From positions 10,530 to 74,529 of the forward strand of contig JBBSWI010000019.1 of assembly GCA_038046405.1 (NCBI GenBank): a stretch of DNA of 64,000 nucleotides. The letters run 5' to 3'. The stretch comes from Nanobdellota archaeon. Its GTDB lineage: Archaea > Nanobdellota > Nanobdellia > SCGC-AAA011-G17 > JAGVZF01. Of this stretch, positions 3,390 through 58,579 are shown one piece after another (position 1 is the first letter of the stretch; each line of letters starts with the position of its first letter). The notes under the pieces are model-generated. The model was given only the letters and a program-made list of their open reading frames with translations. It was not told where the DNA came from and did no database searches. Both the position numbers and the translations under genes were made by a program.

Positions 3390-3430
3390 ACACAATATTT
3401 TTAAATCTCTTCTTTTAAAGGAAATAACGT

Positions 3431-3546
3431 GGGCTCGTAGCTCAGTCTGGTTAGAGCACTCGAAATATGATTGGTGAACCTCTTAACCTGCTGAAGAAAG
3501 CGAGTGGTCGCGGGTTCAAAAAGTTTTGAAAATCCCGTCGAGCCCA
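3431..3546 (+). tRNA. Intron-containing tRNA, 116 nt, with two presumptive introns; anticodon unresolved by eye
   Basis: Acceptor stem GGGCTCG/CGAGCCC with discriminator A, and D-arm GCTC-AGTCTGGTTA-GAGC. Anticodon stem CTCGA/(G)CGAG encloses 36 nt, which is 7 loop nt plus about 29 extra. T-stem GCGGG/CCCGT encloses 19 nt, which is 7 loop nt plus 12 extra, containing the inverted repeat TTCAAAA/TTTTGAA. There is no encoded CCA and the gene sits in a GC-richer island. Confidence 0.7.
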
Positions 3547-3583
3547 CATCAATAAAATACACCAATAAATTTTTATTGTCGAT

Positions 3584-3931
3584 TTGATTTTCTATTTTAT
3601 GGATACTCTGCATGATTGGGTTAAAAAACTTAAAGAATCTAATAAATTAATCATTGTTGAGGGCATAAAAGACAAAAAAACTTTAAATGAGCTAGGTATT
3701 GGCAAGGTGATTACTATAAACAAACCACTGTTTGAACTTGTGGAGGAAATAGCAAGTTTGACCAATGAATGTGTGCTCCTCTTAGATTTAGATTCAGAAG
3801 GTAGGAAACTTTATTCCTCCTTGAAAAAGAATCTAGAAAGAAACAAGGTAAAAATAGACAATAGGTATCGGGAATTTTTGTTTAGCAATACCCACATATC
3901 TAACATTGAGGGATTAAAAAATTATTTATAG
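3584..3931 (+). CDS. Small Toprim-domain protein (COG1658-like)
   Basis: The motifs IVEGIKD (conserved Glu) and LLLDLDSEG (DxD) match a Toprim fold. The start may be the second Met at 3599. Confidence 0.5.
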   Translation: MIFYFMDTLHDWVKKLKESNKLIIVEGIKDKKTLNELGIGKVITINKPLFELVEEIASLTNECVLLLDLDSEGRKLYSSLKKNLERNKVKIDNRYREFLFSNTHISNIEGLKNYL

Positions 3932-4399: not shown

Positions 4400-5235
4400 A
4401 TGTTGAATTTCAAGAAGAGATTATGGATTATTAAACAAAAGCAAAAAGGAGAACTAACTGATTCTGAGATAGCAATCTCTCAGAGAATAACCAGAAGAGC
4501 GGTACAGAAGATATGGTCTGGTTATCAGAATGAAGGCATATCCTTTTTGCAAGACAAAACGGTTGGCAGAAAGCCAACTGAAACTCCAGAACATATTCTT
4601 ACTCAAATATTAAATCTTAGACGACAAAATCACGGAATAAGATCTATACAGGGCTTATTGGAACAGCAAGAGATTCATGTTTCAATAAAGCGTATACATA
4701 ATGAACTTAAGAAAAGGAATCTAGTGATACAAGAGCCAAAGAAAGGTAGACGGTATCACTATATCAAATGGGAAAGACAACATAGTAATAGTCTGTGGCA
4801 AACAGACTATTGCTGGCAGGAAAGCCAGCAATGCTGGTTAACAGCGTGGCTAGATGACCATTCTAGATTGATTACAGCATCTGATTATGTAACAGAAGCC
4901 ACTACAGAAAATGCTTTACGTATATTCGAGAGAGGAGTGAGAAAGTTTGGATTGCCCAGAGAAACATTGAGTGACAGAGACACTCAATACTATGCTGTTC
5001 TAGGAGAAACATCCAGTTTCTAGAGTATATGAGCTCTAGAAATGTAAATCATATCTATGCTTCAATTAAGAAGCCAACTACATGCGGTAAGCTAGAAAGA
5101 TGGTGGAGAACCCATAATGATGAACGGTGGGAATTCGGTAGTTTAAGGACTTTTGTTAATTTTTACAATTACAAAAGACCTCATATGTCTCTTAATTATG
5201 TCACACACTATGAGGTTTGGAAGAGAGACCTATAA
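4400..5235 (+). pseudogene. Disrupted DDE transposase with rve-type integrase core (IS481/IS3-like), split into two ORFs by in-frame stops and a frame change
   Basis: ORF1 (4400-5023) has an N-terminal HTH, then WQTDY and LDDHSRL, which are the first two acidic residues of the DDE triad. ORF2 (5029-5235) carries GKLERWWRT, the E-containing C-terminal rve block. The two ORFs are in different frames and are separated by TAG...TGA. Confidence 0.6.
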
Positions 5236-57730: not shown

Positions 57731-58579
57731 ATGAATAAAACTATGGCCTTTAAAAAAGAGGGTGACAAATATATTCTATTCATCTTTGTCCTCATTTTTA
57801 TAGTCCTGCTGTTCTCTTTTATTACAATCAATCTAAGATTATTCGTTTACAAGGCCCCGCCATCACTGCATGAGTTCTATGGTCAGATAGTCTGTAGCAA
57901 TAATGCTCCATCGCTACAAGACAAGGTAATAAACATCACAGTCCTGGAGCAAACAGGTTATGTTTCCACATATGCCAAAATTTCAAATAACCAATATACA
58001 ACACCGGTACAAGGTTATACGGACAATACCTCAATAATATTTAAGATAGACAATATAAACATTGATAATTCTTCATTCAAGTCATTTGCGTATGAGCAGA
58101 AGAACCTTATAGTTGTTGATTCTTCATTATGCACAAATCCACCAAGCGGTGGCGGCTCTGGAGGCGGTGGAGGTTCAGGCGGCGGCTCTGGAGGCGGTGG
58201 AGGTTCAGGCACTTCACAAAATACTAGCGGTCAAAACTTAACAATAAATATCTCTTCCGAACCCATAGGAGCATCTGTGTACATTAACGACATCTATAAA
58301 GGCATCACTCCTATTAGTTTAACACTAGAAAAAGATCAATATACTATAAAACTTGTTAAACAAAACTATCAGACTTTCTTGCAGCAGATAGACTTAACAT
58401 CCAGCATGTCATTTAATATCAAACTCAAAAAAGTGAGCTCTGCAAATCCAGCATCAATAGAATTCACAAAATATTTCTTTAAAAGAACTGATATTTTGAT
58501 TATAAATGTCATTATCCTGGCACTTCTTTGCGCAGTTATATTCTACAGCAGGATATACCTCAAAAGGCAAAAACAATAG
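57731..58579 (+). CDS. Surface/membrane protein with Gly-rich linker and PEGA-like domain; C-terminal TM anchor
   Basis: EFYGQIVCSNN domain, linker (GGGSG)n, PEGA-like EPIGASVYINDIYKGITPISLTLEKDQYTIKLVKQNYQ, and the C-terminal TM ending in KRQKQ. Confidence 0.5.
   Translation: MNKTMAFKKEGDKYILFIFVLIFIVLLFSFITINLRLFVYKAPPSLHEFYGQIVCSNNAPSLQDKVINITVLEQTGYVSTYAKISNNQYTTPVQGYTDNTSIIFKIDNINIDNSSFKSFAYEQKNLIVVDSSLCTNPPSGGGSGGGGGSGGGSGGGGGSGTSQNTSGQNLTINISSEPIGASVYINDIYKGITPISLTLEKDQYTIKLVKQNYQTFLQQIDLTSSMSFNIKLKKVSSANPASIEFTKYFFKRTDILIINVIILALLCAVIFYSRIYLKRQKQ
58151..58210 (+). repeat. Perfect 30-bp tandem duplication (ggcggctctggaggcggtggaggttcaggc x2) in the Gly/Ser linker
   Basis: Read directly; the two units have no mismatches. 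Confidence 0.9.

Follow-up and report, generated by a model that had tools for sequence, protein, structure and literature searches.

The gene and its detection

The locus at positions 3431-3546 (+ strand) of the window, by which we mean the whole stretch of 64,000 nucleotides (64 kb) analyzed here, raises the question of which tRNA is encoded by a 116-nt gene that carries 41 nt more than the tRNA model accommodates. In a search of a 271-nt region, the covariance model RF00005 matched exactly these 116 nt, end to end over model positions 1-71, with 42.4 bits (gathering score 29) and E = 5.4e-08. The gene contains the acceptor (GGGCTCG/CGAGCCC), D (GCTC/GAGC) and T (GCGGG/CCCGT) stems as well as the anticodon-stem halves CTCG/CGAG, in line with the initial annotation, which had described canonical acceptor and D arms and good T-stem and anticodon-stem halves. 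Its estimate of a surplus of about 41 nt, about 29 on the anticodon side and 12 in the T loop, is matched by the alignment, in which 38 nt stand in place of 9 in the anticodon region (+29) and 13 nt in place of 1 in the T loop (+12). The parts of the gene follow each other as GGGCTCGTAGCTCAGTCTGGTTAGAGCACTCG AAATATGATTGGTGAA CCTCTTA ACCTGCTGAAGAA AGCGAGTGGTCGCGGGTTCAAA AAGTTTTGAAAA TCCCGTCGAGCCCA; the unspliced T loop is TTCAAAAAGTTTTGAAAAT, and CCA is absent from the encoded 3' end. The gene is not a product of chance, as an identical 116-nt copy is present in four other independent assemblies (L015, L016, L017 and L018) and orthologues occur in many related contigs.

Standard tools did not recover this gene. 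ARAGORN, for which an intron search had been suggested at the outset, returned nothing sensible for the window or the region with intron search on or off, and a spurious 'tRNA-Glu' with a 123-nt intron appeared only at a lowered threshold. Rfam run on the whole 64 kb, at the gathering threshold and at E <= 1, gave zero matches, the real tRNA being lost to the filters. Three very short predicted introns cause standard tRNA finders to miss or misname this tRNA-Lys(CUU) gene. A second tRNA was found in the 64-kb window neither by a GC-island scan nor by a T-arm motif scan, nor by a filter-off covariance scan, whose next-best scores were below 8 bits; this last scan used a home-made generic tRNA model intended purely as a screen. 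The most GC-rich 50-nt windows (up to 76% versus a background of 34%) lie at 58117-58240 (+), where they coincide with the repeated unit GGCGGCTCTGGAGGCGGTGGAGGTTCAGGC. This repeat is probably a Gly/Ser-rich linker within a coding region.

Reconstruction of a tRNA-Lys(CUU) with three predicted introns

The gene is very probably a tRNA-Lys(CUU) gene that is broken by three short introns and predicted to be spliced (Table 1). Excision of the three introns in silico yields a 75-nt tRNA-Lys(CUU), in which the stems of 7, 4, 5 and 5 bp are paired throughout, and which ARAGORN calls tRNA-Lys(ctt). The two excisions on the anticodon side leave CTCG-C CTCTTAA GCGAG, that is, a perfect 5-bp anticodon stem around the loop C32 U33 C34 U35 U36 A37 A38, and the third leaves the T loop TTCAAAT (UUCAAAU in the RNA). 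The 7-nt loop CUCUUAA with U33 and a purine at position 37, together with orthology to intronless tRNA-Lys(CUU), points to lysine identity. The micro-exon that carries the anticodon would rank among the shortest tRNA exons so far proposed.

Table 1. Predicted exons, introns and flanking elements of the tRNA gene (positions refer to the window)
Feature	Position	Strand	Description	Basis
TATA-box-like element	3398..3405	+	TTTTTAAA, 26-33 nt upstream of mature 5' end	read from sequence
Exon 1	3431..3462	+	tRNA positions 1-30: acceptor 5' strand, D arm, A26, anticodon stem 27-30	RF00005 alignment, splicing reconstruction
Intron 1	3463..3478	+	16 nt, AAATATGATTGGTGAA, 30/31 (between G30 and C31); full hBHBh' motif	
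Exon 2	3479..3485	+	7-nt micro-exon CCUCUUA, positions 31-37, with U33 and anticodon C34 U35 U36	
Intron 2	3486..3498	+	13 nt, ACCTGCTGAAGAA, canonical 37/38	
Exon 3	3499..3520	+	positions 38-59: A38, GCGAG, variable loop UGGUC, T stem GCGGG, UUCAAA	
Intron 3	3521..3532	+	12 nt, AAGTTTTGAAAA, T loop 59/60; relaxed hBH / bulge-helix-loop	
Exon 4	3533..3546	+	positions 60-73: U60, T stem and acceptor 3' strands, discriminator A73	
Oligo-T run	3570..3574	+	TTTTT, 24 nt past the gene	read from sequence

The initial annotation had proposed two introns, one of 29 nt in the anticodon arm and the T-loop insert, with either a UAU anticodon (Ile-like, lacking U33) or a GAA anticodon (Phe-like). Some tool output agrees with this proposal: the 38 nt appear as a single insert in the Rfam alignment, and ARAGORN labels constructs with one intron as tRNA-Ile(tat), Ser or Leu and miscalls two-intron orthologues as Phe(gaa) or Thr(ggt). 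However, when every way of cutting a single 29-nt intron out of the 38 nt that separate CTCG from CGAG was enumerated, none combined U33, a purine at 37 and a paired 31:39; every product lacked U33, carried an A31xG39 mismatch, or both. The loop AAUAUGA from which UAU had been read is the 5' end of intron 1. CUGAAGA, the source of GAA, abuts no stem; it makes up the 3' part of intron 2, and its GAAG is paired to CUCU in the anticodon loop. Moreover, every orthologue has the loop CTCTTAA, even those that lack introns and share the acceptor and T arms, and a full bulge-helix-bulge (BHB) motif at 30/31 is kept in seven genes (six distinct cores). A two-intron gene for a UAU or GAA tRNA is thus extremely improbable. 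What stands of the proposal is an intron-bearing tRNA of archaeal type; the 29 surplus nt of its anticodon arm divide into two introns (16 and 13 nt) around CCUCUUA, which makes three in all.

Enumeration of the products of two anticodon-side introns gave ten, among which only CUU has good motifs at both introns. A gene with three introns of which the second lies elsewhere, giving CGA, AGA or CUA instead of CUU, is formally allowed by this enumeration and would share intron 1. Its second-intron motifs are poorer, with one to three central pairs and an outer helix of 0-1 bp, the orthologues fix the loop as CTCTTAA, and a CUA anticodon would read a stop codon. These anticodons are almost certainly wrong, and CUU is retained below.

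Splicing motifs at the intron boundaries

Motifs were evaluated as a 4-bp helix between two 3-nt bulges, with a cut after the second base of each bulge. The exact cut within the bulge follows the Archaeoglobus fulgidus EndA-RNA structure and the yeast anticodon-intron pair. The bulge-helix-bulge motif in general has been described (PMC4090602). A strict motif was found for intron 1, a relaxed one for intron 3, and for intron 2 the canonical site with three of the four central pairs. Non-canonical intron placement or a BHB motif had been suspected at the first reading of the gene, and both are present.

The outer helix of intron 1 is formed by 3453-3456 (AGAG) with 3480-3483 (CUCU), i.e. A21G22A23G24 with C32U33C34U35, and the central helix by 3457-3460 (CACU, C25A26C27U28) with 3473-3476 (GGUG). 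The bulges are 3461-3463 (CG|A) and 3477-3479 (AA|C), and a 3-bp inner helix pairs 3464-3466 with 3470-3472 (AAU/AUU). Only 0.12% of shuffled introns reach four of four central and at least three inner pairs.

The central helix of intron 2 pairs 3480-3483 (CUCU, C32-U35) with 3493-3496 (GAAG), with a C34xA mismatch, between the bulges UA|A and AA|A. Once intron 1 has been removed, the anticodon stem serves as the outer helix. As 16% of shuffled introns match this motif, it is not significant alone. Excision in the register 3487-3499 (38/39) gives the same product and a fully paired UCUU/AAGA helix, but leaves C32 unpaired and a 2-nt bulge; the orthologues L012 and L013 favour 37/38.

Intron 3 uses the T stem (3510-3514 with 3534-3538) as its outer helix and has a central helix with all four pairs, 3515-3518 (UUCA) with 3527-3530 (UGAA), which 2.8% of shuffled introns also reach. 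Its 3' site lies in the 3-nt bulge 3531-3533 (AA|U), whereas the 5' site lies in a hairpin loop or an extended helix and not in a 3-nt bulge. The registers 56/57 to 58/59 give the same product but only one to three of four central pairs and little or no outer helix; 59/60, the sole register that yields a motif, was chosen. Because adjacent A residues yield the same product, the registers of introns 2 and 3 are not fixed by sequence. Judged by the shuffles, the motif of intron 1 has good significance and that of intron 3 moderate significance, whereas intron 2 taken alone has none.

The relaxed motif of intron 3 leaves room for a reading in which the two anticodon-side introns are removed and the 12-nt insert is retained as an enlarged T loop or an extra hairpin. 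Besides the 5' site outside a 3-nt bulge and a helix of 6 bp in the minimum free energy (MFE) structure, the fact that T-loop introns are uncommon agrees with it. However, with a T loop of 19 nt the T54-A58 pair would be lost, as would the contacts between the T and D loops. Five orthologues (L013, L021, L023, L025 and L026) have a plain TTCAAAT between identical T stems. The insert measures 13, 20 and 82 nt in L019, L024 and L004, with changed sequence, while UGAA/UGAG plus two nucleotides and U60 are kept at the 3' splice bulge. T-arm introns such as those at 56/57 are documented (PMC4090602). Retention of the insert is thus very unlikely. The insert behaves as the intron for which it had initially been taken, with a plain loop in some orthologues and a diverged insert in others.

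Self-splicing group I or group II introns were rejected, as the inserts measure 12-16 nt and no Rfam intron family matched the region even at E <= 10. A split or permuted tRNA gene was likewise dismissed, since the four exons follow one another collinearly on a single strand in a stretch of 116 nt.

Orthologues with zero to three introns

Relatives of the gene were found by an exact-pattern 26-mer scan of species-representative genomes and a gapped-pattern metagenome scan, sharing the D arm; syntenic loci were reached via homologues of the small Toprim protein encoded directly downstream. In L017 and L018, which carry the identical 116-nt gene, identity is only about 88-90% in the flanks and 80% in the Toprim protein. 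All three intron sites are also occupied in L019/L020 (Toprim protein 64% identical) and in L024 (59%), with lengths of 19/12/13 nt in L019 and 19/14/20 nt in L024. The exons of these two genes are identical to those of the window gene at 73 and 74 of 75 positions, respectively (31 of 32 nt in exon 1, 21-22 of 22 in exon 3 and all 14 in exon 4), whereas the introns agree at only 32 of 48 and 34 of 54 (about 65%).

Other relatives carry fewer introns. Introns 1 and 2 alone are found in L010, L012 and L013, and intron 1 alone, with 63 nt, in L003; L004 and L007 combine intron 2 with a long intron at 59/60. Intronless genes occur in L021, L022, L025 and L026, which have the acceptor stem and the T arm GCGGG TTCAAAT CCCGT in common with the window gene. 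The syntenic gene at L023:1370-1458 (+) has no intron at 30/31, 37/38 or 59/60; its only insert, of 14 nt, interrupts the D stem on the 3' side, and one of the possible registers gives a BHB-like motif (GGAU/GUCU, AG|A, AA|A). This indicates that intron sites turn over within the clade. The loop CTCTTAA is identical in every orthologue, the intronless L021 and L025 included.

The 30/31 site and its motif are shared by the window gene with L003, L010, L012, L013, L019 and L024. Across the six distinct sequences all 60 pair cells of this motif are paired, compared with 29-55% in slid controls; this is a small sample, in which three of four central and all four outer pairs, seven out of ten in total, are invariant. 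Among the variable pairs, 28:N' is found as U.G, C-G or U-A, and compensatory changes occur in both pairs of the inner helix. Introns at 37/38 in L004, L007, L010, L019 and L024 end, in all but two cases, in NNAGAA|A, and the intron 2 central helices of L012 and L013 are fully paired (4/4). The 59/60 intron has diverged to 13 nt in L019, 20 nt with UGAG in L024 and 82 nt in L004. Hence, the bases that form the motifs are kept or co-vary, the remainder of each intron drifts, and intronless orthologues exist.

L004 (minus strand, gene start at reverse-complement position 1835) and L007:2427-2700 (+) are GC-rich Aenigmatarchaeota-like MAGs with a tRNA-Lys(CUU). Their T-loop introns at 59/60 measure 82 nt in L004, where a UUCG/UGAA helix and a CA|U bulge are kept, and roughly 170 nt by eye in L007.

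In intron mode, ARAGORN reads part of an intron as the anticodon loop in the two-intron genes of L010, L012 and L013 and names them tRNA-Phe(gaa) or tRNA-Thr(ggt). Automated annotations of these genomes likely contain such wrong isotypes. Two further hits, L011:998-1119 (+) and L014:1358-1474 (-), are tRNA-Ile(UAU) genes with canonical introns of 47 and 40 nt, which matched the search pattern only via CTCTTA inside the intron. In Nanoarchaeum equitans, an Ile tRNA with a UAU anticodon replaces the agmatidine-modified CAU tRNA; by analogy, the tRNA-Ile(UAU) of L011 and L014 may mark the same trait in their lineages.

Genomic context and the possibility of a pseudogene

An NCBI protein with the label 'MAG: ... 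[Nanoarchaeota archaeon]' matches the downstream Toprim protein without a difference, and by this label, now Nanobdellota, the host is placed in the kingdom Nanobdellati, DPANN. Identical contigs were obtained from Hainich groundwater 0.1-um filtrates. The gene order PAC2 - membrane protein - tRNA - Toprim - winged-helix - SerRS is conserved. The Toprim-domain protein (110 aa, 3599-3931, +), some homologues of which are named 'ribonuclease M5' by JGI, adjoins the 3' side of tRNA-Lys(CUU) in every relative examined (L013, L017-L026), with no correlation with introns. Between the winged-helix gene and SerRS lies an ORF (4400-5023, +) with HTH_28 and integrase-core (rve) domains; in the syntenic L024, SerRS directly follows the winged-helix gene. 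Situated about 0.85 kb downstream of the tRNA, this ORF resembles an insertion of the IS type that may be truncated.

Archaeal TATA boxes lie about 26 nt before the transcription start, and the placement of TTTTTAAA fits a putative archaeal promoter element. The pattern TTT[TA]AA lies 28-33 nt before the mature 5' end of ten AT-rich genes, with or without introns, namely the window gene and nine from relatives. The oligo-T run downstream of the gene, a possible archaeal transcription stop, is kept in L017 and L018 despite differing neighbouring bases.

The gene could also be read as a decayed tRNA pseudogene whose inserts are junk that is never removed. This would agree with the silence of the standard finders and with the integrase-type ORF nearby. 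A decaying gene, however, accords poorly with exons that are identical at 73-74 of 75 positions where the neighbouring protein is only 59-64% identical, with introns that vary in sequence and length and keep the motif-forming bases, or with a conserved promoter box and synteny. In addition, all stems of the spliced product are perfect, and the gene is the sole tRNA-like sequence in the 64 kb. Decay is therefore given a very low probability, and the reading as a tRNA-Lys(CUU) gene with three introns is preferred.

Proposed order of splicing and possible mechanism

Following the established archaeal pathway, the gene would be transcribed from the conserved putative TATA box and the pre-tRNA trimmed at its 5' and 3' ends. 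EndA would then cut at the BHB motifs in which exon pairs with intron, and the exons would be joined by an RtcB-type ligase into the canonical 75-nt tRNA, to which CCA would be added. In the motif at 30/31, the D-stem 3' strand (A21-U28) and C32-U35 of the anticodon loop would be borrowed; in that at 37/38, C32-U35 would form the central helix and the rejoined anticodon stem the outer one. Because both motifs need C32-U35, the two folds are mutually exclusive, and the use of the D-stem 3' strand means that the intron 1 fold also excludes the cloverleaf.

Structural logic and in-silico folding suggest, with about even chances, a sequential order in which intron 1 would be removed and its exons ligated, the RNA would refold and intron 2 would follow, intron 3 being independent. 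If intron 1 is removed and the ends are ligated before intron 2 is cut, the 7-nt exon CCUCUUA is never released. The MFE structure of the primary transcript (RNAfold, -40.7 kcal/mol, z = -3.7) holds GAG/CUC (three of the four outer pairs), three of the four central pairs and the AAC bulge of intron 1; at the T arm it contains the T stem, the AAU bulge and the helix, extended to 6 bp. Folding under BHB constraints, suggested with the initial annotation, gave a best structure of -36.0 kcal/mol with the strict motif enforced versus -34.7 kcal/mol for a cloverleaf-like fold, and the unconstrained MFE contains most, not all, of the intron 1 motif. After removal of intron 1 in silico, the MFE structure consists of the anticodon stem, the UCUU/AAGA helix and an AA bulge. 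When intron 2 was removed first, the intron 1 motif was absent from the MFE structure.

The relaxed T-loop motif and the non-canonical sites imply an EndA of broad specificity. A phmmer search of the ORFs with an approximate Methanocaldococcus jannaschii EndA query, a weak probe, found no EndA or ligase gene in the 64-kb window. A further suggestion, which we consider doubtful, is that the three introns are selected and not merely tolerated: the shared C32-U35 would enforce a sequence of cutting, ligation, refolding and cutting that could act as a maturation checkpoint, or the introns could shield the gene from integrating elements. The layout has been maintained in a DPANN clade, next to sister lineages with intronless copies. 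If the suggestion were true, Nanoarchaeota-labelled genomes would also possess an EndA with a substrate range matching that of the crenarchaeal and ARMAN enzymes.

Comparison with known disrupted tRNA genes

Multi-intron archaeal tRNAs are a known kind, of which this gene is a new member. No published description of a tRNA-Lys(CUU) family with introns at 30/31, 37/38 and 59/60 was found in the openly readable literature. The gene illustrates how a tRNA gene can escape both ARAGORN and the default filters of Rfam. Hidden multi-intron tRNAs in small DPANN genomes make tRNA sets look incomplete, which leads to wrong conclusions on codon usage, host dependence and genome completeness. The orthologues with zero to three introns at fixed sites form a compact natural series for the gain and loss of non-canonical introns beyond the Thermoproteales, and the gene poses the biochemical question of how one endonuclease deals with two mutually exclusive motifs flanking a 7-nt exon.

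Archaeal pre-tRNAs with up to three introns, the documented maximum, and with relaxed hBH, HBh' and bulge-helix-loop motifs are established mostly from the Thermoproteales, for example tRNA-Glu(UUC) of Pyrobaculum calidifontis and tRNA-Pro(UGG) of P. islandicum with introns at 25/26, 37/38 and 56/57 (PMC4390854, PMC4090602, PMC4033280). Like these, the window gene is one collinear gene with one canonical and two non-canonical short introns, one of them in the T arm, and with BHB or relaxed hBH/HBh' motifs at the boundaries. In contrast to the hyperthermophilic crenarchaeotes, its host is a mesophilic groundwater DPANN archaeon; the isoacceptor is Lys CUU, the sites 30/31 and 59/60 differ, the middle exon is just 7 nt long, and four bases of the anticodon loop are claimed by two competing motifs. 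In the Thermoproteales, the endonuclease is an (alpha-beta)2 enzyme with the crenarchaeal loop.

Closer to the host, Kaneta et al. reported that tRNA disruption is more frequent in DPANN and associated with L3-loop alpha4 EndAs, and that incomplete DPANN tRNA sets point to undetected disrupted genes (PMC5829648). The epsilon2 EndA of ARMAN-2 cuts relaxed motifs (PMC3239211). The window gene resembles the disrupted tRNAs of these archaea (epsilon2 enzyme in ARMAN-2, L3-loop alpha4 in Pace-/Woesearchaeota) in belonging to the same superphylum and in its non-canonical introns with relaxed hBH or bulge-helix-loop motifs (PMC3239211, PMC3488258, PMC5829648).

Two more distant systems share part of this layout. 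The tRNA-Ile(UAU) of C. merolae also has three introns (PMC9602550), spread over three regions of one gene with BHB-like motifs, but it belongs to a eukaryotic nucleus, and the enzyme complex and the sites differ. In the tri-split tRNA-Gly of Caldivirga maquilingensis, too, a short middle piece from the anticodon region is joined at BHB motifs (cited in PMC4033280, PMC4390854). There, however, separate genes are joined in trans, whereas here four exons lie in order within 116 nt.
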